Notes: generated from the sequence alone by a model not told the origin. Counted from the first letter of the stretch, positions 38,673 to 55,965 are shown. The stretch: DNA of 56,327 nt from Nanobdellota archaeon (GCA_018830525.1 JAHJSH010000001.1:1-56327); one strand, 5' to 3'. Made by a program: numbers and translations.

Positions 38673-38846
38673 ATGGCAGAAGATTTAATCTCTCTTGCAG
38701 GTGGTATCGGCCTTTCTGGCGGAAATGTTTCTGGAAGATCTTATATTCCCCTGGGCATAAATGGTGACTGCGCTGATGGCAATGACAATTGTGATTGCTT
38801 CCAAGGCGATTGCTACTGTACCGACTGTAATGAAGGTTCTGATTGA
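38673..38846 (+). CDS. 57-aa Cys/Asp-rich peptide, candidate RiPP precursor (not in the ORF track)
   Basis: ATG 38673, TGA 38844..38846; MAEDLISLAGGIGLSGGNVSGRSYIPLGINGDCADGNDNCDCFQGDCYCTDCNEGSD. CTTAAATA box 21 nt upstream; the radical SAM gene starts 25 nt downstream. Confidence 0.6.
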   Translation: MAEDLISLAGGIGLSGGNVSGRSYIPLGINGDCADGNDNCDCFQGDCYCTDCNEGSD

Positions 38847-38871
38847 GTAGATTTCTAATCCCTCAAAGAAA

Positions 38872-39927
38872 ATGGTAAACAAATTTAGCGTAGCTTGGTT
38901 ATCCCTAACATATAAATGTAATAATCAATGCGGCTGGTGCTATGCCTCTTCTAATTCTCCCCAAGAAAATAAAGAACTTCCAAGAGATAAAATATCTCCA
39001 ATTCTTCACCTCCTTAAAGACCTGAAAATAAAAAGAACAATCCTAATCGGGGGAGAACCTACAGTTTATCCCTACCTAAAAGAAGTTTTAGAAGAACACC
39101 AGATCCAAGATATAAACACTGGGATGGTAACTAATGGCAGGAAATTAGCTAAAAGAGAATTTTCTAAAATATTAAAAGACCATGGGGTCAATTCATTAAC
39201 AGTTTCAATTGAAGGATATGATCCTTCAAGCCACGATGAGGTTACTCAAGTTTCGGGTAGTTACGAAGAGTCAATTAATGGAATTTATACTGCGGCGAAT
39301 GAAGGAATAAAAGTTTCCACAAACACTGTAATTACCCGGAGGAATTATTCCAATTTAGAAAAAATCTCGAAATCCCTCATGGATTTACCAATTGAACATT
39401 TAGGTTTTAACATCTGCGGCCCATGTTTTGGAAGTACAGATAACAGCAGTATTATAAATCCCAAACTAGCAGCAAGGGCCTTCCAAGATACCTATGATTA
39501 TATAAAATTAAATTCAAATAAAAGAATAAAATTAGTGACTCCTATGCCCTTATGTTTCTTTAATGAAGAACATCGAGAAGAATTTAAAAATCAAAGAATC
39601 ATCCGGGGAGGACCTTGTCAACTAGCTAGTGGGTCAAATTTTGTAATCGATTATAATGGAGATATTATTCCGTGTACACATCTTACAGGTTATCCATTAT
39701 TTAATATTTACAAAGAAAATGGAGAGTTATATTCTAGGGATAAATTTTTAGAAAGTGTAAATAATCCTGATGGAATTCCTTATCGATTTAGAGAAATTAT
39801 GAGTAAAAATGCTTCAGAAAAATGCGATGATGGAAACTGTGATGAGCCTTGCTCTGGAGGATGTCCTCTTGTTTGGAGTGTATTCGATCCAGCCAAAGAA
39901 ATAAAAGGTATTGATGCTTCAATATAA
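38872..39927 (+). CDS. Radical SAM enzyme with a C-terminal SPASM-type auxiliary cluster domain
   Basis: LTYKCNNQCGWCYA (CX3CX2C), GGEPT, PCQLASGSNFVIDYNGDIIPCTHL, CDDGNCDEPCSGGCP. Confidence 0.85.
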   Translation: MVNKFSVAWLSLTYKCNNQCGWCYASSNSPQENKELPRDKISPILHLLKDLKIKRTILIGGEPTVYPYLKEVLEEHQIQDINTGMVTNGRKLAKREFSKILKDHGVNSLTVSIEGYDPSSHDEVTQVSGSYEESINGIYTAANEGIKVSTNTVITRRNYSNLEKISKSLMDLPIEHLGFNICGPCFGSTDNSSIINPKLAARAFQDTYDYIKLNSNKRIKLVTPMPLCFFNEEHREEFKNQRIIRGGPCQLASGSNFVIDYNGDIIPCTHLTGYPLFNIYKENGELYSRDKFLESVNNPDGIPYRFREIMSKNASEKCDDGNCDEPCSGGCPLVWSVFDPAKEIKGIDASI

Positions 39928-39928
39928 T

Positions 39929-40597
39929 ATGGCTAAAGTAACCTTCATTTCAGATATCGAAAAAGACATGGAAAATATTTGGAATAAATGTAATAAAAAA
40001 CCTAAATTTGGAAATTTCAAAATAAATCCCAGTTTAGAAAAAATATGTATTGGAAAGAAATTCGAAGAGGCGAAACCAGAATTAGAAAAATATCTAAAAG
40101 CAACGTATGACTCTCCCTATATCGAGACCTTCCGAAAAGTAATGCAAGAATTATGGGATAAAATTGAAGTACAATTTTTTGATAGGATGAACTCTTTAAT
40201 GAAAAAAGAATACAAAAAAGAAATCAAATCTTACATCACGACATTAAACATTTGCCCATACAATCCGCTAGAGCCTTCATTCATAGTTTCTTTATTTTAT
40301 CCCCTTCAAAGGGCTATTTTAACTTGCGGGCATGAAATCATGCATCTTTACTTCCACGAATTTTATTGGAATGAGGTAGAAAAGAGGATTGGTCCTAAGA
40401 AAACTGGAGATTTAAAAGAAGCACTAACAATTTTATTGAATCTAGAATTTATTGATCTTTGGTTAACACGAGATGGGGGTTATAACGAACATAAAGAACT
40501 CAGAGAATTTATTTCAAAAACTTGGAAAGAAGAAAAAGACATTGAAAAGTTGTTAGAAAAATGTATTATCTTTTTAAATAATTCTACAGAATCTTAA
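39929..40597 (+). CDS. HExxH-motif protein (putative metallopeptidase), third gene of the radical SAM cassette
   Basis: CGHEIMHLYFHEF. ATG 39929 is 2 nt after the radical SAM stop; the ORF track starts at TTG 39911. Confidence 0.45.
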   Translation: MAKVTFISDIEKDMENIWNKCNKKPKFGNFKINPSLEKICIGKKFEEAKPELEKYLKATYDSPYIETFRKVMQELWDKIEVQFFDRMNSLMKKEYKKEIKSYITTLNICPYNPLEPSFIVSLFYPLQRAILTCGHEIMHLYFHEFYWNEVEKRIGPKKTGDLKEALTILLNLEFIDLWLTRDGGYNEHKELREFISKTWKEEKDIEKLLEKCIIFLNNSTES

Positions 40598-42321: not shown

Positions 42322-43179
42322 ATGGGAGATGATAAAAAGATAATTGTATTTAATGATAAGAAAATAAGGAAGGTTTGGAATGATGATGACTGGTGGTTTT
42401 CTGTCGTGGATATTGTTGGAGTTTTGACTGAAAGTGTAAATTCCCGAGATTATTGGTATAGATTAAAGGTTAGGGAAGAAGAATCTTCAGGGGTTGAACT
42501 GTCGACATTTTGTCGACAGTTGAAATTAGAAGCTGAAGATGGTAAACTTCGGGAGACAGACTGTGCAGATAAAAAAGGAATTTTTCGTATTATCCAATCG
42601 ATTCCTTCCAAGAAGGCAGAGCCGTTTAAATTATGGTTAGCGAAAGTTGGTTCAGATAGAATTGATGAAATAGAAAATCCTGAATTGGCTCAGGAGCGGA
42701 TGAAGAAACTTTATGAATTAAAAGGGTATTCTAAGGATTGGGTTGATAAGAGAATTCGTGGAATCGCAGTTAGACAAAATTTAACTGAGGAGTGGAAGGA
42801 CAGAGATGTTGATGAAAATATTGAATATGCTATTTTAACTAATGAGATAAGTAAGGCAACTTTTGGAAAGACAATTCAGGAATATAAGGAACTGAAAAAT
42901 TTAGATAAGGAAAATCTTCGGGACCATATGGATGATTGGGAATTAATCTTAACTATGATCGGGGAGAAAGCGACTACAGAGATAACTCAAAAAGAAGATT
43001 CATTGGGTTTTGGAGAATGTAAGGATTCTGCAGTCAAGGGTGGAGAAATAGCCGGAAAGACGCGAATGGAATTGGAAAAGTCATTAGGGAAACGATTAGT
43101 TTCAGATGAAAATTATTTGAAAAAAGAAGAGAGAAAAACCAAAAAGAAAAAACGTATACTTCATGCAATAAATAAATAA
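42322..43179 (+). CDS. Bro-N domain / DinD-like protein, paralog 1
   Basis: IRKVWNDDDWWFSVVDIVGVLTES (Bro-N-like), ENPELAQERMKKLYELKGYSKDW, KENLRDHMDDWELI. Roughly two-thirds identical, by eye, to the ORF at 44948..45820. Confidence 0.55.
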   Translation: MGDDKKIIVFNDKKIRKVWNDDDWWFSVVDIVGVLTESVNSRDYWYRLKVREEESSGVELSTFCRQLKLEAEDGKLRETDCADKKGIFRIIQSIPSKKAEPFKLWLAKVGSDRIDEIENPELAQERMKKLYELKGYSKDWVDKRIRGIAVRQNLTEEWKDRDVDENIEYAILTNEISKATFGKTIQEYKELKNLDKENLRDHMDDWELILTMIGEKATTEITQKEDSLGFGECKDSAVKGGEIAGKTRMELEKSLGKRLVSDENYLKKEERKTKKKKRILHAINK

Positions 43180-44194: not shown

Positions 44195-44758
44195 ATGATA
44201 CATATGGTTCAAAATAAAAACAACATAGAATTAGACATAATATTAACATTAATCAAAAATAAATCTCATTTAAGAGAAATAGCAAGAACCCTAAACAAAT
44301 CACATTCAACAATTTTAAGAAAAATTAATGAACTTGTAAAAGAAAATGTATTAGATTTTAAACAAGAAGGTAAAAACAAAGTATTTTTTATAAAAAACAA
44401 CCTTAAAGCAAAAAATTACGTTTATTCTGCAGAAATTTATAAGCTATCTAACTTATTAAGAAAACACCCCGGATTATCAATAATTCTTGAAAATACAAAA
44501 AAAAATACAAAAAAAGAAATGGTTATTTTATTTGGAAGTTATGCAAAAGGAAATCCTAAACCAAATAGTGACATTGATATTTATATAGAAACCATAAACA
44601 AAAACTTAAAAAAAGAAATAGAAAATATCAACAGCAAAATAAATATTAAAATAGGAAATTTTGATTTATCTTCATTATTAATAAAGGAAATTATCAAAAA
44701 CCACATCATAATTAGGGGTGTTGAAGAATTTTATGAAAAAACTTTGTTTTTTGAATAA
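44195..44758 (+). CDS. wHTH plus nucleotidyltransferase-domain protein (MNT-like, solo)
   Basis: HLREIARTLNKSHSTILRKINELVKENVL and ILFGSYAKGNPKPNSDIDIYI. Confidence 0.6.
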   Translation: MIHMVQNKNNIELDIILTLIKNKSHLREIARTLNKSHSTILRKINELVKENVLDFKQEGKNKVFFIKNNLKAKNYVYSAEIYKLSNLLRKHPGLSIILENTKKNTKKEMVILFGSYAKGNPKPNSDIDIYIETINKNLKKEIENINSKINIKIGNFDLSSLLIKEIIKNHIIIRGVEEFYEKTLFFE

Positions 44759-44947: not shown

Positions 44948-45820
44948 ATGTCTGAAGAAAAAGAAAACATTGATACACATATTGTTATTTTTAGGGGCAA
45001 AACGATAAGAAGAAAACTTGTTAAAGATAAATGGTTCTTTTCTGTGGTTGATATAATTAGAGTTTTAACTGATAGTGAAAACCCGCGAAAATATTGGAAT
45101 AAACTAAGTCAAAGATTACGAAAAGAGGGAAGCGAGGTGGTGACATTTTGTCACCAACTGAAATTACTTTCTAGAGATGGTAAAGAATATGAGACAGATT
45201 GTGCAGATACGGAAGGTATATTTAGAATAATTCAGTCAATTCCTTCAAAAAAAACAGAACCATTTAAGAGATGGCTTGCAAGAGTTGGCTATGAACGAAT
45301 CCAAGAAATAGAAAATCCTGAGTTGGCACAAGAAAGGATGAAAAAACTCTATAAATTAAAAGGGTATTCTAAAGATTGGATTGATAAAAGAACTCGGGGG
45401 ATTGCAATAAGGCAAAATCTTACCGATGAATGGAAAAACAGGGGAATACAGCAAGAGATAGAATTTGCAATACTAACAAATGAGATAAGCCAGGCAACTT
45501 TTGGAAAAACGGTTGAAGAATACAAAAAATTTAAGGGACTGAAAAGGGAAAATCTTAGAGACCACATGGATGATTTAGAATTAATATTTAATATGCTTGG
45601 AGAAGCAGCCACAGCAAGAATAACAAAAACAAAAGATGTTCAAGGTTTAGAAGAAAATAAAATCGCTGCAACACAGGGCGGTGAAGTTGCAGGTAATGCA
45701 AGAAGAGAATTAGAAGAGAAAACAGGGGAAAGTGTTTTAACAGATGAAAACTTTTTGAACATTCCAGAAAAGCTAAAGAAAAAAAGAAAGAAGATGATTG
45801 AAAATGTAGAGGTTGTATAA
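44948..45820 (+). CDS. Bro-N domain / DinD-like protein, paralog 2
   Basis: KDKWFFSVVDIIRVLTDS, ENPELAQERMKKLYKLKGYSKDW, RENLRDHMDDLELI. Confidence 0.55.
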   Translation: MSEEKENIDTHIVIFRGKTIRRKLVKDKWFFSVVDIIRVLTDSENPRKYWNKLSQRLRKEGSEVVTFCHQLKLLSRDGKEYETDCADTEGIFRIIQSIPSKKTEPFKRWLARVGYERIQEIENPELAQERMKKLYKLKGYSKDWIDKRTRGIAIRQNLTDEWKNRGIQQEIEFAILTNEISQATFGKTVEEYKKFKGLKRENLRDHMDDLELIFNMLGEAATARITKTKDVQGLEENKIAATQGGEVAGNARRELEEKTGESVLTDENFLNIPEKLKKKRKKMIENVEVV

Positions 45821-45823
45821 AAC

Positions 45824-45955
45824 TTATTTCATCTCAACATCTAACTCAGCCCAATTCCTTCCTGCCTGTATGAAATTCTTGAAGAATTTATAAGACTTTG
45901 GCTCAGTCCCAACATGATTAAAGTTAATCAACCCGTCGCTGAACCTCCAAGAAAA
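45824..45955 (-). pseudogene. Orphan 3' fragment of a paralog of the 791-aa surface protein gene (copy of 49301..49425)
   Basis: Encodes ...FSWRFSDGLINFNHVGTEPKSYKFFKNFIQAGRNWAELDVEMK*. Nucleotide differences from the intact gene in the shared part are synonymous. No start codon; an in-frame stop lies about 65 codons upstream. Confidence 0.75.
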
Positions 45956-46021: not shown

Positions 46022-46282
46022 TTACGAAGCTCCTTCTATATCCTTCTTTAATTTTTCTAGTTTTTCCTTATAAGTCCTAAGAGAAGTATCGTCTTTTATC
46101 CCTAAAATCTTGATTTTTATTTCTAAGGCGTTTAATAAGCTCTTGTCTATTTCTTTAAGATGATATCTTCCCCGATCAATATTATTTTCTTGGATATCTC
46201 TATCAATTTTATTAAAATGTTCTTCTATCTCTCGTTTTAGGCTTTCAATTCCCTTTTCTACTCTTTTAATTCTTTTAGCCAT
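46022..46282 (-). CDS. Small coiled-coil protein downstream of the AbrB-NTase gene
   Basis: ORF overlapping the upstream gene by 25 nt. Confidence 0.4.
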   Translation of the reverse strand: MAKRIKRVEKGIESLKREIEEHFNKIDRDIQENNIDRGRYHLKEIDKSLLNALEIKIKILGIKDDTSLRTYKEKLEKLKKDIEGAS

Positions 46283-47007
46283 TTTTTTGATAAATCTATG
46301 ACCCTTATTAACTCATCGGGGGGGAGATTATCTAACTCTTTCTCATCCCTTTTTATTCTAAGATAAGCTGAATAAACTTTTTCTCCAACAAGTTCTAAAA
46401 AATACTTTTTATGATAAACTTTATTAGAAATAAGACACTTTATTAGATACAGTTCTCTTAATCTTAGGACAACAGAATAAACAATACCATCAGGGATATT
46501 CAGGTTATTCTCTTTGCACATTCTTAAAGAATCTTGATTTATTTTAAAAACTCCTTCAATTTCTGACAAATTTTTCTTTATATTCAACTTGCATTCCTTG
46601 CCCCGATATTTATCAATTAAATCTTTATTTAAAATAACTTTCATTTCTTTCAAAAGGCTAAGATAATTCAAGTTTTTTGACAGATTTTTTGAAAAAGAAC
46701 TCTCTGAAACTAGAAGAAGTTCATAATTATTATAAATGATCAGTTTATTTGTATTCTGTGTGATGATTAAAATATCTATATCGCTATTAAAATCAAAATC
46801 TCCCCTTGCATAGCTCCCATAAAGATAAATCCCCTTTACTTCTTCGTTTAATCCCTTTTCAAATAAGCAAGTTATAATATCTTGAAGGATTTTCTCGCTT
46901 GAAGGCTCAAAAAGAGTTACAATTACCTGCTTGTTCAGCCAACTTCTAGGCAATAAAACCCCTGCCGATGTTCCAACTTCCCTAGTTTGTTTAGTTATAG
47001 TTTCCAT
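46258..47007 (-). CDS. AbrB/SpoVT-like N-terminal domain fused to a nucleotidyltransferase domain
   Basis: EVGTSAGVLLPRSWLNKQVIVTLFE and IYLYGSYARGDFDFNSDIDILII. Confidence 0.55.
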   Translation of the reverse strand: METITKQTREVGTSAGVLLPRSWLNKQVIVTLFEPSSEKILQDIITCLFEKGLNEEVKGIYLYGSYARGDFDFNSDIDILIITQNTNKLIIYNNYELLLVSESSFSKNLSKNLNYLSLLKEMKVILNKDLIDKYRGKECKLNIKKNLSEIEGVFKINQDSLRMCKENNLNIPDGIVYSVVLRLRELYLIKCLISNKVYHKKYFLELVGEKVYSAYLRIKRDEKELDNLPPDELIRVIDLSKKWLKELKE

Positions 47008-47163: not shown

Positions 47164-47919
47164 CTATTTACCCTTTGTAAAAATATACTGCAAACTTGCC
47201 TTTGAATAAATCTTTCTCAACCGATTTAACTCTCTCAAACTACAATCTTTTATTCCAATTTCCACACTTCTCTGACAAAATCTCAAAATCTCAAAATCAG
47301 AAAAATCTTCTCGCCCATAAACTTCTTTTTCAAACTGAATAAGCAAAAAAGGTTTGTAATCAAGTGATTTATAGAACTCAATCGAACTATCCAATGCCCC
47401 AACATTAATCTTGTCATACTTTTCAAACCCAATTTCCTCGAACTTTCCCATTAACATTTCCCCAAACTTTCTTCGCTGAAATCTACAATCCACAGCAATC
47501 TCGCTTATTAACAAATAGCCATCTCGAGGAAATCCGCAAATAACTCCAATAAGCTCATTATCCAAATAAATACCAATAAAAAACTCTGGAAATTCTTTAA
47601 ACTTCTCTTTCAAAAATTCAGAATCCCTAACCCTTTTAGCACCCAACTCTTCATCCAAAATTTTCATAGCTAAATAGAAATCCCTAAAAGGAATATTCCT
47701 AATCTCTAGACTTGTCAAAAAACCGACCTTCTTGAATTCCAAAAAAATTGCCTTCTCCACCTCATTCAATTCGTTCTCATTCACCCCACAAGAAAGCTTC
47801 TTCAGAAAAGGCTTATGTTCAAGAGCAAGTTTCAAATCAATTGACCTTTTACAATCCCGAACAAAAAAAGCCTTTCTATCCTTTCTCCACTTAACTTGTT
47901 TCTTCAAAGTTTCTATCAT
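47164..47919 (-). CDS. GNAT acetyltransferase domain fused to an uncharacterised roughly 100-aa N-terminal domain (possible peptide-binding/RRE-like)
   Basis: IGVICGFPRDGYLLISEIAVDCRFQRRKFGEMLM (GNAT motif A); ATGA overlap with the radical SAM gene. Confidence 0.6.
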   Translation of the reverse strand: MIETLKKQVKWRKDRKAFFVRDCKRSIDLKLALEHKPFLKKLSCGVNENELNEVEKAIFLEFKKVGFLTSLEIRNIPFRDFYLAMKILDEELGAKRVRDSEFLKEKFKEFPEFFIGIYLDNELIGVICGFPRDGYLLISEIAVDCRFQRRKFGEMLMGKFEEIGFEKYDKINVGALDSSIEFYKSLDYKPFLLIQFEKEVYGREDFSDFEILRFCQRSVEIGIKDCSLRELNRLRKIYSKASLQYIFTKGK

Positions 47920-49022
47920 TTTATATTAAGGTCGAACTCATTCTTTAATTTATCCCCATACTCTTTTAGTCTATCAAGTCCCAAAGCCCGTCCATTCCTT
48001 ATACAAAAAGGAGTTGGAGATTTTCCATCTCCAAAATATCTAAAACTTTGAGCCACACATTTATTACATTTTGACAACATCTTACAGCCGTCGCAACCTA
48101 CATTCATATACCCTCTAAATTTTTCAAAAACCTTGCCATCCCAAATTTCCTGAAGAGATTTATCTCGAATATTTTCAAATTTCATAAATTTTTCAGGAAT
48201 AATTACTCTCGATAAAGTACATGGAGAAACGGTTCCATCAGAATGAATCTCACAAAAATTAATCGCCGCCGCACAACTATAGGCAGATAATCCCTTTTGC
48301 CCCATCTCAACAGGCATATCGATTATCCTAATATTTATTTTGTTTTTTTTACCTTCATCACTAACGGATTCCCAAAAAGCATTATCATAATATTCATAAA
48401 ATTCTGAAATAAATTTATTAGCTTTTCCCCTCCCAATCGGAATAATTGGAGAAATAAACCAATCAATAGGGTTTATTTCTTTTATTAATTTTTGAAACTC
48501 TTCCATTTTCCGAATATTTTCCTTATGCAAGACAGTAGCAATAGAAATGGAAATATTCATTTTCTTAAAATAATAGATATTATTCATAGTAATATCAAAC
48601 ATAGTAGGATTATATTTCCTTTGGGAATCCAGTCTTATAAATCCATGAGATTCTCTGTCTGGACCATCCAAACTAATTTTTACACTAATTAAATATTCCT
48701 TATTGTCAACGATAAAATCCCGCATATCATCAGAAAATACTCCATTTGTAGTCAAAATAAAATACATTCCTTTCTTAGTAAGATAATCTATTAATTCCTT
48801 AAAGATTGGACTTTGAGTAACCTCTCCCCCCGAAAGTACCACATAAAAAACATTACACCTAATTAAATCATCAATAACCTCTTTCCATTCATCAATATTC
48901 AGTTCATCATCCCCCCTCCCCGAATAATCTCCAAAACAATGTTTACATCTAAGATTACATTTACTTGTTAGGTTTATGTAACAAGAATAGGGAGAAACAT
49001 AAACTTCGTTAGTGATATCCAT
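47916..49022 (-). CDS. Radical SAM enzyme with a SPASM domain
   Basis: LTSKCNLRCKHCFG (CX3CX2C), SGGEVT, CAAAINFCEIHSDGTVSPCTL, CDGCKMLSKCNKCVAQS. Confidence 0.85.
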   Translation of the reverse strand: MDITNEVYVSPYSCYINLTSKCNLRCKHCFGDYSGRGDDELNIDEWKEVIDDLIRCNVFYVVLSGGEVTQSPIFKELIDYLTKKGMYFILTTNGVFSDDMRDFIVDNKEYLISVKISLDGPDRESHGFIRLDSQRKYNPTMFDITMNNIYYFKKMNISISIATVLHKENIRKMEEFQKLIKEINPIDWFISPIIPIGRGKANKFISEFYEYYDNAFWESVSDEGKKNKINIRIIDMPVEMGQKGLSAYSCAAAINFCEIHSDGTVSPCTLSRVIIPEKFMKFENIRDKSLQEIWDGKVFEKFRGYMNVGCDGCKMLSKCNKCVAQSFRYFGDGKSPTPFCIRNGRALGLDRLKEYGDKLKNEFDLNIK

Positions 49023-49042
49023 TTTAGATTAATAAATTACAA

Positions 49043-49219
49043 CTAGTATTGATTCTGTCCACAAGGCATAATATCATTCTTTGTCAAGTAAACAAGTCCA
49101 CCGGACTCATTTCCAAAACCTGCTTCTCCACGGAGATAATCCTCGAAGATTCTTTGAGAAACCCCAATTGTCCCTGGAGAAATAGTGCTATAACCTATGT
49201 TCTTAGTCCTATCAACCAT
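49043..49219 (-). CDS. 58-aa peptide, candidate RiPP precursor for the adjacent radical SAM/SPASM enzyme
   Basis: MVDRTKNIGYSTISPGTIGVSQRIFEDYLRGEAGFGNESGGLVYLTKNDIMPCGQNQY. ATG 49219 is exactly 21 nt from TTTATAAA (49241..49248); the stop is 20 nt before the radical SAM ATG. The ORF-track version uses an upstream TTG. Confidence 0.5.
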   Translation of the reverse strand: MVDRTKNIGYSTISPGTIGVSQRIFEDYLRGEAGFGNESGGLVYLTKNDIMPCGQNQY

Positions 49220-49240
49220 AATAATATCACAAAACCATAT

Positions 49241-49248
49241 TTTATAAA
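49241..49248 (-). promoter_or_regulatory. TATA box TTTATAAA 21 nt upstream of ATG 49219
   Basis: Read directly. Confidence 0.5.
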
Positions 49249-49290: not shown

Positions 49291-51666
49291 CTAAGGCATG
49301 AACTCTACATCCAACTCAGCCCAATTCCTTCCTGCCTGTATGAAATTCTTGAAGAACTTATAAGACTTTGGCTCAGTCCCAACATGGTTAAAGTTAATCA
49401 ACCCGTCGCTGAATCTCCAAGAGAAATACAATCCAGTAACACCAACCGGAGTACAACCCACATTAGCAACACATATCAATCCACTCGAAGTGCTCGCATC
49501 AAACTCAACATTACTCCACGGAATATTCGATAAATCCTCGGGCTTAGTAATACATGCCGCAGCATAATTCGCCGTAATTGTCGGATCAACAACCATAACA
49601 TTCGCACGCTTCTTCAAAGAACCCCCCCGCAGGTCCTCTACATAAACAATAATCTGATAGTTCCCGGGTACAGAATACAAGTGGAGATATCGATTCGTCT
49701 CACTAGCAAGAGTCGTAGAATTAGTCCCATCCCCGAAATCAACATAGCCTCGAACCAGTCCGTCGTTGTGACCCACCGAAACATTAAACCCGAAACTATC
49801 TGTTATATTAAAGAAATTCCCACACCCAATATCCGTAACATCAATATCTGGAAAATGTGGGTCACAATCAAATTCGAAATCCAAATTCAATAGCTGTGTT
49901 TTTGTTTGGGGGAGCACCGTAACAAAATTATAACCATCATCATATTTCAAAAACACATCAGTAGAAAAATCAAAAGTAATCCTTCCAGTATCCTCACATT
50001 CATCAGCAAAAGGAAGTTCAGAGAAAGGAACATGTGAAAGGACCTCTGTCGTATTCATCAGACCATTAATAGTTACTTGTCGCATTTCCCCCTCCTCAAT
50101 CCTTACCGGACAATTAGCACAACTACCACTAAAATTAAGAGAATTCGCGATTCCAGCATCCGTAATATTCACCGCCCCAATCCCAGTATTAGTAACATCA
50201 TAATCCGCAGTAAAAGAAATCCCATCCTGAACTAACCCAGACCTTACAAAACTAATATCCGGGCTAACAACCTTAATATCATAATCTTCTAAAGGAACCC
50301 AGCCATCTCTCCTTTGCCAAGGATTACTGCCACCCATACTACCAAGACTACACAAGGTAGATCTATCCTGATTACTCTCTGTCAAATCTGGACAAATATA
50401 ATCGGGAGAATCACAAATCGCATTAACCATATCCATCTTAACATTATTACTTCCCGGAACAACAAAGTCTCCCAACTTAAGCCAGTCAGCCTGACTTGCA
50501 GTTAACGCAAGATTACAACCCGCAGGCAAATACCCAACATCACTCACTCCAGGACCATCCCCCACATAAGAATCCCGATCCACAGTCGTACCAATATCAC
50601 AACTAGGCATACTATCATAATTAGCATTTATACCACCAGCCGAACCCCATGCAACAAATCCCTGACGAATCCCATAAGGAACTCCATTACTACATTGAAC
50701 ACTAATTGCGTTAATTCCAGTAATCCTCACCTCAGTTCCGGGAGCGACGACATAACCTCCTAAGGGATTAGATTTTAATTCTCCGGGCGCAATCGCCGTA
50801 GGACTATTATAATAGACAGTAGTAATCGCACCCGCAGCATCTACCTGTGCAGCCCCTGCATGACTGCAGGGGGTATTAGTACTACAAGAAGGTTCAACGA
50901 CAAAAGCTGGAGAGATCTCCACATTATAGAAATCTCCATCAATAGTATATTTAGCTCTCAAGGAATAAGTTCCAGTTCCAACATCCACATTCGCACCACA
51001 CCGAGTCTTTCCAGGTAAATCCCATCCCGTAACTCCATTTTCAACAGTACATTCATCACCTAGAATAGCATTATTCGGAGTAAGTTTAGTAGCTCCCAAA
51101 TAAAATTCAATATCTATATTTTTATAATCCGGATCATCCCGGTCTCCACAATTCATAATTGTCTCTATAGGAATAGAAGAAAGCGGACATGAACTAGTAA
51201 CCGGCGCTACAAAGCCAATTGGACTACTACCAGGACTAACAGAACTACAACACTCATCAAAAATACAATCTCCACTACAATCCTTATCCCTCCTACAGTA
51301 CTCCCCCTCATCGCCATCTATATCTCCCGTATTATAGGTTAAGGTAAAGTTATCGATATCACCAGTAAAAGTTATCTGATTATCTCCCCGCCAATACCAA
51401 CTAGGCCAACTAAATGCCCAACTGTCCCTAAAATCTCCTACAGATAAAGAACTCGTTGAATTACAAAATCCCTGGTCGTTACCATTTAAACTTACTCGAC
51501 ATCCAAGACTTGCATTCTCAATCACAATTGAATTACTATTAACATTCTCACTCTCCTCAACATCAAAATTTGTATTCCCAGTTCCGAAAACAGTGTAAGT
51601 CGCAGCAACAACCGCCGGAGCTAACAACAAAACTGCAAGAACCACAACAATTATTTTTTTATCCAT
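49291..51666 (-). CDS. Large secreted Cys-rich surface protein with a PKD-like domain
   Basis: Signal peptide MDKKIIVVVLAVLLLAPAVVAA; GYVDFGDGTNSTT...YSVPGNYQIIVYVEDLRG (PKD-like); 8-nt overlap with the upstream gene. Confidence 0.6.
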   Translation of the reverse strand: MDKKIIVVVLAVLLLAPAVVAATYTVFGTGNTNFDVEESENVNSNSIVIENASLGCRVSLNGNDQGFCNSTSSLSVGDFRDSWAFSWPSWYWRGDNQITFTGDIDNFTLTYNTGDIDGDEGEYCRRDKDCSGDCIFDECCSSVSPGSSPIGFVAPVTSSCPLSSIPIETIMNCGDRDDPDYKNIDIEFYLGATKLTPNNAILGDECTVENGVTGWDLPGKTRCGANVDVGTGTYSLRAKYTIDGDFYNVEISPAFVVEPSCSTNTPCSHAGAAQVDAAGAITTVYYNSPTAIAPGELKSNPLGGYVVAPGTEVRITGINAISVQCSNGVPYGIRQGFVAWGSAGGINANYDSMPSCDIGTTVDRDSYVGDGPGVSDVGYLPAGCNLALTASQADWLKLGDFVVPGSNNVKMDMVNAICDSPDYICPDLTESNQDRSTLCSLGSMGGSNPWQRRDGWVPLEDYDIKVVSPDISFVRSGLVQDGISFTADYDVTNTGIGAVNITDAGIANSLNFSGSCANCPVRIEEGEMRQVTINGLMNTTEVLSHVPFSELPFADECEDTGRITFDFSTDVFLKYDDGYNFVTVLPQTKTQLLNLDFEFDCDPHFPDIDVTDIGCGNFFNITDSFGFNVSVGHNDGLVRGYVDFGDGTNSTTLASETNRYLHLYSVPGNYQIIVYVEDLRGGSLKKRANVMVVDPTITANYAAACITKPEDLSNIPWSNVEFDASTSSGLICVANVGCTPVGVTGLYFSWRFSDGLINFNHVGTEPKSYKFFKNFIQAGRNWAELDVEFMP

Positions 51667-53245
51667 ATTGTTTTAGCTTCCTCCGATTTTTAGCGGCGAC
51701 GACGATTATCACAATAGTGACCACAACAATTATAATTCCAGCCAAGATAACATATAACCAAATATCCCTCGAGACACCGAAAAGAATCATATCACTATTG
51801 ACCTCGAAATTAAAATCTTGATTCGTCCCCATATCCTGCACCAAGATATCATATTTTTTCCCATTCCCGACGTCAAATACTAAATCTAAACAATTATCCA
51901 CCACCTGCCTTTTCTGCACAACTATCAAAGTACCTTGTTTTACTGAAATAAATAACTCTGATTCAAGAGGCTCATCAGTAATACCATCATAAACACAAAC
52001 AGTACCTTCAAACTTCTCCCCCATCGAGGACTCTTCTAATTTAACATCATGAATCGAACTAGGAAAATTATTTGCATCAGTAACATAACAATATTCCTCG
52101 TATAACTCATTTGTTTTAGAATTTATTAGCTTCGCACAAGTTTCAAATTTATATAACTTTCCAGCTACGGCCAATTTAAAATCAATCTCCTCAAAGAAAT
52201 TATTAACATCCATATTTCCAATAATTTGGGTCTTTGTTCCAACAACCTTGTCTCCGACTAAATCAGTAACAGTCACTGTTAGAAAAATATCCTCAGTAAC
52301 CGGAAAAGTATAATGGTCTGGAGAACCACCGACTAAAATACTAACTGTCATTTCCTCATCGTTATAATAATAATTGTCTGTAGAAAGTTGTCTCACTTTA
52401 GCCATTGCCCCTTGAGAAACAACCCTACTCCTATATAAAGAAACTAGACCATCAAAATCTATTAACTCAATTCTAATCGCATAAGCATCCGGACTATCTG
52501 GAACTTTCAACCCGACCAGAATCAATTGTTCTCCGGCAACCAAACTCACACTTTTAGTTTTACTCGAAATTAAATCACAAATACTATCTTGCCAATCACA
52601 AATGCTAACTTCCAATGTAGCGCCCTGAGCTTTCTCAGAATCAACATAAACATCTAAAGTAAAATCCTCGCCAGGATTTATTCCAACCCCAATAGGACCC
52701 GTTTGATTATTAATACTTGTCTTTGTCCTTACAATGTTCGCATACGGAAAACTTCCCGCACCAGTTACTTCAAAAGTTTGATACTTACTTGAAACTAAAA
52801 TATGAGGCATTCCGATAATCGGAGTTTTCTTAGTTCTAAACGCAAAATCCATTCGATAAGTTCCCGAGCCCAAGTCTTCCCTCAAAGCATAAGAAAAAGG
52901 CACATCAACATTAGAATTCGCCGGAACATTAATCCCCCCAATCACTACTTCTCCAAAAATATTATCACAATCGGAAAATTGAGAGGGATAAGTTGGTGCT
53001 TCACATCCCTTCAAAACTTCAATAACCAAAAACCCATCGACAATTGGAAAATCTTCTCGATTATAAATCGTAATCACTTCATCAATAACATCTCCCACAT
53101 TATAAGTTTCCAGAAGATCAACATCGATATCTGCCTTATAAAAAATACTTATTTCCTCATCAGATACGGCAGCAAAAACACTCACACTAATTAAATTTAC
53201 AAATAAGAAACACAGAACAAACATCCCAACCACTCCCTTTTTCAT
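51659..53245 (-). CDS. Secreted surface protein with a C-terminal TM anchor
   Basis: Signal peptide MKKGVVGMFVLCFLFVNLISVSVFA; C-terminal IWLYVILAGIIIVVVTIVIIVVAAKNRRK; TTTATAAA 53267..53274 lies 21 nt upstream. Confidence 0.6.
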   Translation of the reverse strand: MKKGVVGMFVLCFLFVNLISVSVFAAVSDEEISIFYKADIDVDLLETYNVGDVIDEVITIYNREDFPIVDGFLVIEVLKGCEAPTYPSQFSDCDNIFGEVVIGGINVPANSNVDVPFSYALREDLGSGTYRMDFAFRTKKTPIIGMPHILVSSKYQTFEVTGAGSFPYANIVRTKTSINNQTGPIGVGINPGEDFTLDVYVDSEKAQGATLEVSICDWQDSICDLISSKTKSVSLVAGEQLILVGLKVPDSPDAYAIRIELIDFDGLVSLYRSRVVSQGAMAKVRQLSTDNYYYNDEEMTVSILVGGSPDHYTFPVTEDIFLTVTVTDLVGDKVVGTKTQIIGNMDVNNFFEEIDFKLAVAGKLYKFETCAKLINSKTNELYEEYCYVTDANNFPSSIHDVKLEESSMGEKFEGTVCVYDGITDEPLESELFISVKQGTLIVVQKRQVVDNCLDLVFDVGNGKKYDILVQDMGTNQDFNFEVNSDMILFGVSRDIWLYVILAGIIIVVVTIVIIVVAAKNRRKLKQYG

Positions 53246-53676: not shown

Positions 53677-54408
53677 CTATTTAATACTTGCTAATCCTAT
53701 TAAGTCCATCCATCTATTAGGATTCTTTAATTTAATATCTGTTGCCAATTCAAAAGGAGAACAATTAATCCCTTGATGTTTTCTAATGAAGTTATAATAA
53801 ACAACAAATCCTTTTAAGATAGCGTCGGCACTTTCTACACTTCCGTAAAAGCCACGCATTATTTTAGTCCTATCTCTTACGTTGTTATGGAATCTCTCAA
53901 TAGGGACGTTAAAGCCCTGTCCTTTTGAAGCATTAACAATATTATGAAAAACATTAAACTTTCTTTCTTTATTATTCCAACCAAATATTTTTTTAACACA
54001 CCGAGGATATACACGATGACCATCGGAAGTTATCGTTGTTATGCTTCCTTTTGTTTTGTATTTTGCTAAACTCAAAACTTCTTTTATTTCTTCTTGTCCT
54101 CTTGAAACTCTAAAACTTGAAGCTACAACAAAACGAGTTTTACTATCAATAGAATCAATTAACCAATTTTGATTTCCCAACCTATTATGAGATTGTTCAT
54201 CAATTTGTAATTCTGCTCCGACTTCTAATTTTAATCCATCTGCAAATTTGCTTATCTTCTTAGAGTATTTGATAACCCAATTATACACCGTCATATTTGT
54301 GCAGTTGTGAGGGAAGAACGCTTTAAGATGTGCTTGGACTTTTCTTGTGCTTAGTCCACCGAAGAATAAATCTATACTTGCGGTTATCTTCTTTGGGTGG
54401 TTTCTCAT
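53677..54408 (-). CDS. IS6-family-like DDE transposase, catalytic portion
   Basis: HTH-like ITASIDLFFGGLSTRKVQAHL...TVYNWVIKY; DDE candidates QIDEQ, ITSDGHRVY, PIERFHNNVRDRTKIMRGF. Confidence 0.7.
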   Translation of the reverse strand: MRNHPKKITASIDLFFGGLSTRKVQAHLKAFFPHNCTNMTVYNWVIKYSKKISKFADGLKLEVGAELQIDEQSHNRLGNQNWLIDSIDSKTRFVVASSFRVSRGQEEIKEVLSLAKYKTKGSITTITSDGHRVYPRCVKKIFGWNNKERKFNVFHNIVNASKGQGFNVPIERFHNNVRDRTKIMRGFYGSVESADAILKGFVVYYNFIRKHQGINCSPFELATDIKLKNPNRWMDLIGLASIK

Positions 54409-54771: not shown

Positions 54772-55965
54772 ATGGATACTTCAAAGTTTAATGGTGAAGC
54801 TGGAAAATTAATTAGAAGATGGGCGACGTTTGGAAGAGAATCTATAGAATTTGATTACTTCTTTCCAAACAAACTTCCAAATATGAAAGACTTCTGCAAC
54901 GACCTTTCAATTATAGAGAAATCAAACGAAGCGAACAGGGCTATTGGAGAATTGCAAGGGTTAACAAAAAATATTGGAAATATAGAACTCTTCACTGACC
55001 CATATCTAAGAAAAGAGGCGGTTGATAGTTCAGAGATAGAAGGAACTTTTGTTTCCTTAACTGATGTTTTTTTAAGTGAAGCTGGAAGTAAGAAGCCAGA
55101 ATTTTCAAATCCGAATGTTAAGGAGGTAGTTAATTTTGTACATTCAATAAGTTATGCTCTTGAGCAATTAAAATCAAATAAAGAGATGGATAAAGAATTA
55201 CTTAATACAATGCATAAAACTCTTTTAGATAGTGTTCGTGGTAGAGATAAATTAATTGGAGAATTTAGAAAACAGCAAAACTGGATTAAAAGTAAGGGTG
55301 CTACAAAAGATGTTTTAGATGCAGATTTTGTTCCACCATCAGAAGAGAAAGTTGAAGAATTAATGACCTATCTTTTTGATTATATTAATGAAAAAGATGG
55401 ATATATGAGATTAATTAAAGCAAGTCTAATCCATTATTTATTTGAAACGATACATCCTTACGAAGATGGAAATGGAAGAGTTGGAAGAACATTAATTCTA
55501 TTATATTTAATTAAATCAAAAGTTTTAGAAGAACCAATTTTATACCTAAGTCCTTATTTTAAAAAATATAAAGAAGTTTATTACAATCTTCTAATGGAAG
55601 TAAGGCAAACTGGAAATTATAATAAGTGGGTTAAATTCTTTTTAGATGGAATAACCGAAATGGCAATTAATACATCAAAGAAAGTAAAGAGACTTATTGA
55701 TTTATATAATGACTATAAAAAGAAATTATCAGACATCCATGCTACCCCATTATCTTTTAAAATTTTAGACAAATTTTTTGAAAGTCCTTACTGGTTTATT
55801 TCATTGATACAGGAAGAATTAGGAGGAGAAAATTATCCTAAAACAAAAAGGGCTATGAGGTACTTAGTTGAGGGGGGGATTATAAAAGAATTTACTAAAT
55901 ACCAAAGAAATAAAATATTTGTATCCCCAGAAATTCTAAAAGTTTTAGAAGAAGATTTAATTTAA
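54772..55965 (+). CDS. fic: Fic/DOC (Fido) family protein with an N-terminal inhibitory-helix motif and C-terminal wHTH
   Basis: HPYEDGNGRVGR (Fic motif HxFx[DE]GNGRxxR with Y for F); SSEIEG matches [ST]xxxE[GN]. Confidence 0.85.
   Translation: MDTSKFNGEAGKLIRRWATFGRESIEFDYFFPNKLPNMKDFCNDLSIIEKSNEANRAIGELQGLTKNIGNIELFTDPYLRKEAVDSSEIEGTFVSLTDVFLSEAGSKKPEFSNPNVKEVVNFVHSISYALEQLKSNKEMDKELLNTMHKTLLDSVRGRDKLIGEFRKQQNWIKSKGATKDVLDADFVPPSEEKVEELMTYLFDYINEKDGYMRLIKASLIHYLFETIHPYEDGNGRVGRTLILLYLIKSKVLEEPILYLSPYFKKYKEVYYNLLMEVRQTGNYNKWVKFFLDGITEMAINTSKKVKRLIDLYNDYKKKLSDIHATPLSFKILDKFFESPYWFISLIQEELGGENYPKTKRAMRYLVEGGIIKEFTKYQRNKIFVSPEILKVLEEDLI

Follow-up and report, generated by a model that had tools for sequence, protein, structure and literature searches.

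In the mycofactocin and pyrroloquinoline quinone (PQQ) pathways, a radical S-adenosylmethionine (SAM) enzyme with a SPASM domain and a small, separate protein with the fold of a RiPP recognition element (RRE) act on a short precursor, RiPP denoting a peptide made by the ribosome and modified after translation. The mycofactocin precursor MftA ends ...CGVY, and mycofactocin is methylated by MftM. We analyzed a 56,327-nucleotide stretch of DNA from a Nanobdellota archaeon (GCA_018830525.1 JAHJSH010000001.1:1-56327; hereafter, the window), in which three adjacent minus-strand genes, between positions 47164 and 49219, have a comparable layout. They encode a 58-residue peptide, a 368-residue radical SAM/SPASM enzyme, and a 251-residue protein that joins an RRE-like domain to a GNAT acetyltransferase. 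We consider it likely that these genes form a self-contained RiPP-type peptide-maturation cassette of a DPANN archaeon.

As in mycofactocin biosynthesis, the cassette combines a SPASM enzyme of about 360 residues that lacks a fused RRE with a small RRE-fold partner (here fused to GNAT), and its short precursor ends in Tyr at a free C-terminus, with a Cys a few residues before. Its relatives in bacteria of the candidate phyla radiation (CPR) also carry glycosyltransferase and methyltransferase tailoring genes; for mycofactocin itself, glycosylation by MftF has been described (10.1101/821413). However, MftA ends in Gly-Val-Tyr, whereas the cassette tail reads C-x-x-N-Q-[Y/F] and allows Phe or His at its end. 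Genes for MftD, MftE, and MftF are missing in and near the cassettes, a GNAT domain is present, the RRE lies by sequence outside the PqqD family, and the system is found in DPANN archaea and CPR bacteria rather than in Actinobacteria. The PQQ system (PqqA, PqqD, PqqE) likewise pairs a discrete RRE with a short SPASM enzyme, whose substrate is a small Tyr-containing precursor that is strongly conserved, and PqqE is the second-closest solved structure to the cassette enzyme. Here, too, the motifs differ, as the peptide core has no Glu-x-x-x-Tyr and the cassette no PqqB, PqqC, or PqqF genes. The resemblance to MftA and PqqA-type precursors on which the preliminary description of this locus remarked is thus no more than an analogy of architecture and does not extend to family membership, since all cut-offs and motifs are missed.

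A second group of relatives comprises the enzymes of thioether RiPPs, namely of ranthipeptides (PapB and CteB) and sactipeptides (SkfB, AlbA, and StsB), which share with the cassette a SPASM domain with the full set of auxiliary-cluster Cys residues and the RRE-dependent leader recognition that we predict for it. Their peptide cores are rich in Cys, whereas the cassette core has a single Cys in a tail fixed at the C-terminus. CteB and SuiB further differ in that their RRE is fused to the N-terminus of the radical SAM enzyme, from which the RRE of the cassette is separate. Another comparison is NxxcB, which makes a radical Cys-to-Asn beta-thioether across a two-residue spacer. The Cys/Asn pair, the spacer, and the ring size recur in the cassette, but in the opposite orientation, C-x-x-N instead of N-x-x-C (PMC9389541). 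Overall, every family-level test failed, so the cassette is a member of none of these known systems. We found no earlier description of the family or of an RRE-GNAT fusion in a literature search that most subscription journals lay beyond, and the main text of a compendium of ~15,000 RiPP radical SAM enzymes mentions neither archaea nor GNAT.

A three-gene cassette conserved across DPANN archaea

The precursor gene (49043-49219; 58 codons plus a stop, MVDRTKNIGYSTISPGTIGVSQRIFEDYLRGEAGFGNESGGLVYLTKNDIMPCGQNQY) is separated by 20 nucleotides from the gene for the radical SAM/SPASM enzyme (47916-49022), which shares an ATGA overlap with the gene for the RRE-GNAT fusion (47164-47919). A TATA box, TTTATAAA, lies on the same strand at 49241..49248, 21 nucleotides before the peptide ATG at 49219, and thus covers positions -29 to -22. 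All coordinates of this layout hold as first described.

The start codon deserves attention, as an 81-codon frame from an upstream TTG is also open. That frame would traverse the promoter, and homologous peptides begin at a Met equivalent to ATG 49219, which together argue that the 58-codon start is the right one. Among closer relatives (radical SAM identity of at least 62%), a TATA-like box starts exactly at -29 from the peptide ATG in 19 orthologous loci; several others have it at -27, -28, or -30, and outside this range no single position accounts for more than three loci. This recurrent spacing, which fits a leaderless archaeal mRNA, supports the earlier preference for the shorter peptide and implies that the window's transcript would be leaderless or nearly so and would arise from the cassette's own TATA promoter. 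More distant archaeal relatives have a GGAGG 6-9 nucleotides before the same ATG and a TATA-like box near -53.

To find relatives, we relied on the radical SAM enzyme, for which a database search returned 265 homologues. Identity was 50% or more for ~110 clusters, of which the named ones came from metagenome-assembled genomes of Nanoarchaeota and Woesearchaeota. Four long contigs with enzymes 45-76% identical to that of the window showed the same gene order, with a 57-residue peptide gene before the enzyme (two copies in one contig) and a GNAT protein of ~250 residues after it. Their neighbourhoods were otherwise unrelated and included seryl-tRNA synthetase with RNA polymerase, surface proteins, and a TrmB regulator. 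Scans of genomes and metagenomes added ~75 orthologous loci.

We then counted linkage after removing duplicates, considering enzymes that share 51% identity or more with that of the window and have a flank of at least 200 nucleotides upstream or 300 nucleotides downstream. The peptide gene lay directly upstream of the enzyme in 46 of 47 distinct loci, with a gap from stop to start of 9-55 nucleotides (median 22); at the 47th, L090, the peptide reading frame is present, but the contig contains no canonical start for it. The gene for the N-terminal domain plus GNAT lay immediately downstream of the enzyme in 43 of 45 distinct loci. Of the two exceptions, one has its RRE-GNAT gene upstream and the other is a fragmentary match to the enzyme. 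The three genes are real, and their linkage and conservation far exceed chance. Conservation of the peptide beside orthologous enzymes had been set beforehand as one of the tests on which the proposal should stand or fall, and co-occurrence of all three genes in other archaeal genomes had been suggested as a further check; the counts bear out both. The cassette is widespread, occurring in dozens of tiny symbiotic archaea with Woese-, Pace-, and Nanoarchaeota-type genomes. When the remaining flanking reading frames of the GNAT-type loci were clustered, no family occurred in more than four loci, and no peptidase or transporter recurred. The lack of any other recurrent neighbour marks the three genes as a self-contained module.

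A precursor peptide under purifying selection

We collected 45 distinct homologous peptides of 43-61 residues, which align end to end. Each begins with Met and a short N-terminal stretch that varies, followed by a leader box, a hydrophilic linker of variable length, and a conserved tail. Across the 45 peptides, the leader box has the consensus [G/S]-P-[G/N]-T-[A/I]-G-[L/I/V]-[A/S]-Q-R-[I/M], and the tail, directly followed by the stop codon, reads L-x-x-[L/V]-x-x-N-x-[V/I/L]-x-x-C-x-x-N-Q-[Y/F]. In the window, the leader box corresponds to residues 14-24 (SPGTIGVSQRI; 49148..49180, minus strand) and the core tail to residues 53-58 (CGQNQY; 49046..49063, minus strand), which abut the stop codon and would be the site of modification by the enzyme. 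The window contains a single copy of the peptide gene.

Conservation was strict at the protein level and relaxed at the codon level. All 47 genes encode Cys at position -6 from the end (25 TGT and 22 TGC codons), Asn at -3 (31 AAT, 16 AAC), and Gln at -2 (34 CAA, 13 CAG). The last residue is Tyr in 36 genes, Phe in 10, and His in one. Thr and Gly of the leader box are likewise invariant in 47 of 47 genes, and each is written with all four of its codons. Such invariant residues combined with synonymous codon variation point to protein-level purifying selection and, hence, to a translated gene. Judged from sequence, the arrangement of leader, linker, and core is that of a classic modified-peptide precursor, and it lies beside its candidate enzyme as is general for RiPPs.

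These homologues were accessible mainly through their loci. A word-index homology search with the peptide recovered the query alone, and an exhaustive single-sequence search gave 10 matches at E ≤ 0.001, three of which were long unrelated proteins; counting by locus yielded much more information. No Pfam or NCBIfam family model matches the peptide. Tandem precursors occur in L004/L154, with tails CDVNQF and CVVNQF, and in L121, with tails CGQNQF and CGQNQH. Natural tail variants such as these could be used as ready-made tests of substrate tolerance.

The radical SAM/SPASM enzyme

The 368-residue protein belongs to the radical SAM superfamily (Pfam PF04055, 69.2 bits against a cut-off of 29.5) and contains a SPASM domain (PF13186, 42.5 bits against 21.5). 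Its CX3CX2C motif, CNLRCKHC, occupies residues 22-29 (C22, C26, and C29; 48936..48959, minus strand) and, like the G65-G66-E67 (GGE) motif, is invariant across 12 homologues down to 41% identity. The SPASM region (48003..48275, minus strand; Pfam residues 250-322) is marked by eight Cys residues that are invariant in the homologue alignment: C250, C257, C268, C310, C313, C319, C322, and C340. With these three features intact, the enzyme is probably active and probably holds two auxiliary iron-sulfur clusters.

We compared the enzyme with curated NCBIfam models, as the preliminary description had advised, and no cut-off was reached. The highest scores were for AhbD (TIGR04545; 126.6 bits, cut-off 500), NirJ2 (110.1 bits, cut-off 500), MftC (TIGR03962; 107.4 bits, cut-off 265), and PqqE (TIGR02109; 92.9 bits, cut-off 381). 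Lower scores were obtained for PapB (66.6 bits, cut-off 340), SkfB (65.8, cut-off 300), StsB (65, cut-off 625), and AlbA (51.3, cut-off 850). Since all cut-offs were missed, the enzyme does not group with a family acting on proteins or on non-peptide substrates; such grouping had been named in advance as fatal to the proposal. The closest solved structures are the peptide maturases SkfB (E = 1.7e-23) and PqqE (1.5e-22), followed by SuiB, BlsE, and CteB.

An RRE-like domain fused to an acetyltransferase

The 251-residue protein had been divided into a C-terminal GNAT domain and an unassigned N-terminal domain of about 100 residues. The N-terminal part is indeed a separate domain, but it is shorter than thought, about 66 residues (approximately residues 1-66; 47722..47919, minus strand), as a free-standing GNAT paralogue aligns with the fusion from residue 65 onward. 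No Pfam or NCBIfam model matches the first ~95 residues. Because the Foldseek match list of the full fusion was dominated by GNAT structures, we modelled residues 1-80 alone with AlphaFold2 (AF2). The model is confident (predicted local distance difference test, pLDDT, 92.5) and shows four short strands followed by helices, with a beta-beta-beta-alpha-alpha-alpha core (strands 9-13, 17-22, and 27-32; helices 33-44, ~47-50, and 53-65). Searched against the PDB, it matched almost exclusively RRE structures among its top ~30 matches, with template modelling (TM) scores of 0.55-0.68. These included TbiB1 and lasso-peptide B1, both solved with bound leader peptides, as well as ThcOx, TigE (TM 0.68, 2.4 Å), SuiB, MccB, PbtF, and CteB. 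The fold thus bears out the earlier suggestion that this domain could serve as an RRE: by its predicted structure the domain is an RRE, although it does not join the PqqD sequence family. Current sequence-based RRE detectors would probably miss it.

The GNAT unit (approximately residues 67-251 plus the stop codon; 47164..47721, minus strand) was recognized by Pfam (Acetyltransf_1, PF00583; 38.4 bits against 20.7, residues 99-187). An AF2 model of the full fusion, built from a 39-sequence alignment, reached a pLDDT of 95.5 and a predicted TM score of 0.89. The GNAT fold gave 383 PDB matches at E ≤ 0.001, led by the N-alpha-acetyltransferases Ard1 of Thermoplasma and Sulfolobus, Naa50, and NatC, with a bacterial protein acetyltransferase also among the best. 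The cassette GNAT shares the fold of Ard1/NatA and Naa50 and differs from them by its fusion to the RRE and by two family-specific features, a GFPR[E/D]DY motif and an extension at the C-terminus that ends in QYIFTK. The acetyl-CoA-binding motif A, Q/R-x-x-G-x-G/A, is Q-x-R-G-F-G in most family members.

The origin of this domain may be traced to the translation machinery. A free-standing GNAT of 187 residues in L170 (4001-4564; also in L171) is 55% identical to residues 65-249 of the fusion. Its gene lies on a DPANN contig between those for elongation factor EF-2, which has an intein, and EF-1alpha, just after that for ribosomal protein S7, and is an unusual insertion within this conserved translation-factor operon. 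On the strength of this identity and setting, the GNAT of the fusion appears to derive from a housekeeping acetyltransferase associated with translation. We considered whether GNAT homologues of ~185 residues might represent split cassettes and rejected this, as one resides in the S7/EF-2/EF-1alpha operon and the other near a different radical SAM and PqqD cluster. The latter cluster (L168, 1-2164) encodes a radical SAM/SPASM enzyme, an 85-residue protein that is a true Pfam PqqD, and a protein resembling prenyltransferases and squalene-hopene cyclases, near the GNAT homologue.

Acetylation has precedents among modified peptides. Microviridin and goadsporin are acetylated at the N-terminus. 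GNAT enzymes that acylate RiPPs are also known, such as lasso-peptide acetyltransferases (10.1101/2024.12.31.630886).

An invariant core with interchangeable tailoring genes

Examining more distant orthologues revealed how the cassette varies among lineages. Orthologous enzymes with at least 51% identity to that of the window all occur with the RRE-GNAT fusion. At 48% identity or less, none has a fused GNAT, and 12 of the 14 distinct loci with enough downstream sequence carry a free-standing RRE homologue of 68-97 residues. The RRE-like domain is the only universal partner of the enzyme.

A modified arrangement was found in CPR bacteria, namely WS6/Dojkabacteria and a bin labelled Saccharibacteria, whose enzymes are 43-46% identical to the window's; the CPR enzyme scores 99 bits for MftC and 97 bits for PqqE. 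Their operon runs in the order radical SAM enzyme, RRE, GT4 glycosyltransferase, PIG-L/LmbE deacetylase, FtsJ/RlmM-like methyltransferase, and a peptide of 41-43 residues. No peptide gene was present directly upstream of the CPR enzyme; a hidden Markov model (HMM) located it ~4.4 kb downstream, at the end of the operon. The peptide starts MK[V/I]NPGTSGLAQN[I/V]SSR and reads MKVNPGTSGLAQNISSR...C-x-x-N-E-Y before the stop codon. Its NPGTSGLAQN box and C-x-x-N-E-Y tail show that leader box and tail are conserved across the divide between archaea and bacteria.

Additional combinations occur. L006 and L149 encode the peptide, the enzyme, an RRE of 68-73 residues, and an FtsJ-like protein. In L139 (11-4821; also L145), a bacterial-type operon encodes a separate 158-residue GNAT of the family, a 502-residue radical SAM/SPASM enzyme, a GT4 glycosyltransferase, the orthologous radical SAM enzyme, and an LmbE deacetylase, and is followed by an RpsB-like gene; the 502-residue enzyme, the second of its kind there, has an RRE fused at its C-terminus (HMM E = 3e-25). 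No precursor peptide gene for this operon lay within the available sequence. Some archaeal loci of the fusion type add an FtsJ-like or TehB-like methyltransferase. The FtsJ/RlmM-like gene (best NCBIfam match RlmM, 83.5 bits, cut-off 176) lies beside cassettes of both bacteria (L010-L012, L142, and L146-L148) and archaea (L004/L154, L006, and L149). A TehB-like gene is found in this position in L003 and in L123/L124; in the 422-residue protein P0232, it forms a triple fusion of RRE, GNAT, and methyltransferase. The recurrence of the FtsJ/RlmM-like gene suggests that a fold typical of rRNA methylation may serve here in O-methylation of a peptide or sugar.

Taken together, this variation defines peptide, radical SAM enzyme, and RRE as the invariant core, to which GNAT, glycosyltransferase, deacetylase, and methyltransferase are added as tailoring modules that can stand in for one another. 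The cassette of the window is the minimal GNAT form and has none of the other tailoring genes; tblastn searches of the window for FtsJ-like, TehB-like, GT4, and LmbE genes found none.

The CPR accessory genes also recall bacillithiol and mycothiol biosynthesis. The best matches of the GT4 and LmbE proteins are BshA (59 bits) and BshB1 (86 bits), well below the cut-offs of 273.7 and 182.5. In L139, GT4, LmbE, and GNAT, the enzyme types of BshA/MshA, BshB/MshB, and MshD, are joined with the radical SAM enzyme, and Cys is the one invariant reactive residue of the cassette peptide. In contrast to those pathways, there is no Cys ligase (BshC/MshC), and the window's cassette has neither GT4 nor deacetylase. 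A link to thiol biosynthesis would be a matter of pure analogy.

Proposed mechanism and alternative explanations

In the mechanism that we propose, the 58-residue product would be a precursor peptide, with the leader box SPGTIGVSQRI, a variable hydrophilic linker, and the core ...MPCGQNQY at its free carboxyl end. The RRE, formed by the divergent first ~66 residues of the 251-residue protein, would bind the leader box and present the peptide to the radical SAM/SPASM enzyme, as its fold and its strict co-occurrence with the conserved box suggest. Using one SAM cluster and probably two auxiliary iron-sulfur clusters, the enzyme would then radically modify the C-x-x-N-Q-[Y/F] tail. For this step we favour an intramolecular crosslink with the invariant Cys as thioether donor, because Cys is kept even in the most divergent tail, that of L006. 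The invariant Cys is also the one hint of chemistry of the sacti- or ranthipeptide class, in which its sulfur would be joined to an alpha, beta, or gamma carbon. The most economical acceptor would be the invariant Asn three residues downstream, mirroring the N-x-x-C beta-thioether of NxxcB, and the C-terminal aromatic residue is an alternative. Any specific bond is, however, a tentative proposal that is somewhat more likely wrong than right. Finally, the fused GNAT, which resembles protein N-alpha-acetyltransferases, would acetylate the RRE-bound peptide at an amine, for which the N-terminus is the simplest candidate, as no other amine is shared by all members. Near-invariance of the core in both archaea and CPR bacteria makes it probable that the product serves a single conserved role in the cell and is not a hypervariable toxin.

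Several observations weigh against this mechanism, in whole or in part. The reaction type of the enzyme cannot be read from its sequence, and full-length similarity predicts chemistry poorly for SPASM enzymes; StsB, for example, most resembles MftC and yet makes sactionines (PMC10288494). Two tails deviate: CNGHNQY in L109 has a one-residue insertion between Cys and Asn (C-x-x-x-N), and GCLSGM in L006 retains Cys but has no Asn, Gln, or aromatic residue. A link between Cys and Asn leaves the fixed Gln and the C-terminal aromatic residue unexplained, which makes MftC-type chemistry at the C-terminus, or an additional crosslink, a live alternative. In the window protein and its closest relatives, motif A of the GNAT is QRRKFG, with Lys at the fourth position, and the acetyl acceptor is a guess, as no Lys is conserved in the peptide. 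The RRE assignment has its own difficulties. Foldseek E-values of the N-terminal domain are modest (0.03-0.5), which is expected for 80 residues and accompanied by a highly specific match list. Pfam gave no match to PqqD (PF05402) at E ≤ 10, with 5 and then 27 family members, a profile search of the PDB returned no RRE, and hhalign against the genuine PqqD of L168 gave a probability of 1.1%. In addition, the cassette contains no protease, transporter, or immunity gene, and no leader peptidase or exporter emerged among the GNAT-type loci, so leader removal and export are unexplained.

The fixed aromatic residue is central to an alternative that follows the logic of mycofactocin and PQQ, in which the peptide would be the sacrificial precursor of a small cofactor or another metabolite of low molecular weight. 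The enzyme would target the aromatic residue at the C-terminus, for instance through oxidative decarboxylation and crosslinking of the MftC kind, and the tail would be clipped by a peptidase encoded elsewhere and tailored, by acetylation in DPANN archaea and by glycosylation, de-N-acetylation, and methylation in CPR bacteria. The division of labour between a short SPASM enzyme that carries no RRE of its own and a small RRE partner, as in PqqE/PqqD and MftC/MftB, fits this idea, as does an aromatic residue at the free C-terminus with a Cys a few residues before. Near-invariance of the core over two domains of life is typical of cofactor precursors, the cassette is retained in very small genomes, and the GT4, PIG-L/LmbE deacetylase, and FtsJ-like genes of CPR bacteria recall the glycosylation and methylation of mycofactocin. 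MftC and PqqE also rank with the better NCBIfam matches (107 and 93 bits for the window's enzyme, 99 and 97 bits for the CPR enzyme), but these scores are far below the cut-offs of 265 and 381, and similarity to MftC is misleading (PMC10288494). The cassettes have no MftD/MftE-like or PqqB/C-like genes in or near them, the peptides lack a Val-Tyr or Glu-x-x-x-Tyr motif, and we saw no linked cofactor-dependent dehydrogenases. Moreover, Phe replaces Tyr in 10 of 47 genes and His in one, which is awkward for phenol-dependent chemistry or glycosylation of the phenol. We regard this route as unlikely, albeit not far-fetched.

The same conservation bears on another possibility, a secreted antimicrobial or signalling RiPP, such as a sacti- or ranthipeptide-like bacteriocin or a pheromone, used between host and symbiont or against competitors. 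A core that hardly varies in 47 genes and across domains is unlike that of arms-race toxins; the peptide has neither a signal peptide nor a cleavage motif of the double-glycine type, and no transporter, protease, or immunity gene recurs beside the cassette. What speaks for a secreted product is the combination of radical SAM/SPASM enzyme, RRE, and short precursor, the standard layout of sacti- and ranthipeptide loci, together with the closest solved enzyme, SkfB of the sporulation killing factor, the tandem peptide copies of L004/L154 and L121, and the position of the window's cassette between direct repeats in a mobile, defence-rich region. On balance, we find it improbable.

Lastly, it is very improbable that the enzyme acts on a non-peptide substrate as an AhbD/NirJ-like tetrapyrrole decarboxylase, with the small reading frame and the GNAT gene as neighbours or an accessory subunit. 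In its favour, AhbD (126.6 bits) and NirJ2 (110.1 bits) are the best NCBIfam matches, and the next-best genome matches (at most 31% identity) come from methanogens and other archaea in which AhbD-type enzymes are expected. Against it, these scores are four-fold below the cut-off of 500, strict linkage with a selected peptide and an RRE-fold domain has no role in tetrapyrrole synthesis, and no haem or sirohaem genes lie nearby.

Genomic context of the cassette in the window

The cassette of the window is flanked by a 123-nucleotide direct repeat. The proximal copy (49303..49425) is the true 3' end of a gene for a 791-residue PKD-domain protein, and the distal copy (45833..45955) is an orphan copy of that end with sharp boundaries. 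The copies are 95% identical, have a spacing of 3470 nucleotides, and bracket exactly the genes for the peptide, the radical SAM enzyme, the RRE-GNAT fusion, a nucleotidyltransferase, and an 86-residue protein. No integrase gene lies between them. The repeats, which we regard as context and not as working parts of the cassette, resemble a scar left by an insertion or by recombination that delivered a module of ~3.35 kb. We rejected the explanation that the orphan fragment belongs to a paralogous surface-protein gene, as the tail occurs only twice and a stop codon lies just upstream of the distal copy. In the close relatives L089, L104, and L130, no flanking repeats were found within the available flanks.

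The nucleotidyltransferase within the repeats (249 residues) has a DUF2080-like N-terminus, and its gene overlaps the 86-residue reading frame, with which it may form a toxin-antitoxin pair. The same 249-residue nucleotidyltransferase follows the cassette in L130, whose radical SAM enzyme is 80% identical to that of the window. Genes of mobile or defence type surround the cassette (42322-43179, 44195-44758, 44948-45820, 46022-47007, 53677-54408, and 54772-55965), comprising two paralogous Bro-N proteins, two nucleotidyltransferases, a DDE transposase, and a Fic protein.

Another cassette lies on the plus strand of the window (38673-40597) and encodes a 57-residue peptide rich in Cys, Asp, and Gly, a 351-residue radical SAM enzyme, and a 228-residue protein with an H-E-x-x-H motif. 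The two systems are distinct, as the preliminary description had supposed: their radical SAM enzymes are 25.6% identical over 180 residues, and their peptides are unrelated. The 228-residue protein is weakly similar (23% over 96 residues, pairwise E = 6e-4) to a 211-residue HExxH protein of L003 and L001, which was found near only two distinct GNAT-type cassettes. The two HExxH proteins could represent a shared leader peptidase.

Large secreted or surface proteins adjoin the cassette on the minus strand of the window (49291-53245), namely the 791-residue PKD-domain protein and a 528-residue protein. The flank of L001 (6967-11107) encodes proteins of 542 and 1153 residues, the latter with a weak match to DUF4215. 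As the flanking surface proteins are not homologous between loci, their association with the cassette is probably coincidental.

Implications for DPANN and CPR biology

The genomes of DPANN archaea and CPR bacteria are tiny and encode very few biosynthetic pathways. The cassette represents a previously unannotated, widely conserved family of radical SAM peptide maturation in DPANN archaea, with relatives in CPR bacteria. No curated model in Pfam or NCBIfam covers its peptide, RRE domain, or enzyme at the family level, and its RRE-GNAT fusion appears to be undescribed. Conservation of the peptide core greatly exceeds what is common among RiPP natural products, pointing to a function in the cell that is fixed. 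A more speculative extension, which we think has a small chance of being right, is that DPANN and CPR, the two major lineages of ultra-small symbionts, share a conserved housekeeping small molecule derived from the peptide or a permanently modified mini-protein, for instance a cofactor for redox reactions or a protective thiol based on Cys. The system would have been exchanged across domains, between lineages in which most conventional pathways to cofactors and thiols are missing, and its interchangeable tailoring sets (GNAT, or GT4 with LmbE deacetylase and FtsJ-like methyltransferase) would act on one core made by the radical SAM enzyme.

The cassette consists of three small genes that can be co-expressed, so the proposal is directly testable. 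If the product were merely another thioether peptide, it would still establish a RiPP family that is new and unusual in its range of hosts. If it proved to be a cofactor or thiol, metabolic reconstructions of DPANN archaea and CPR bacteria would change.

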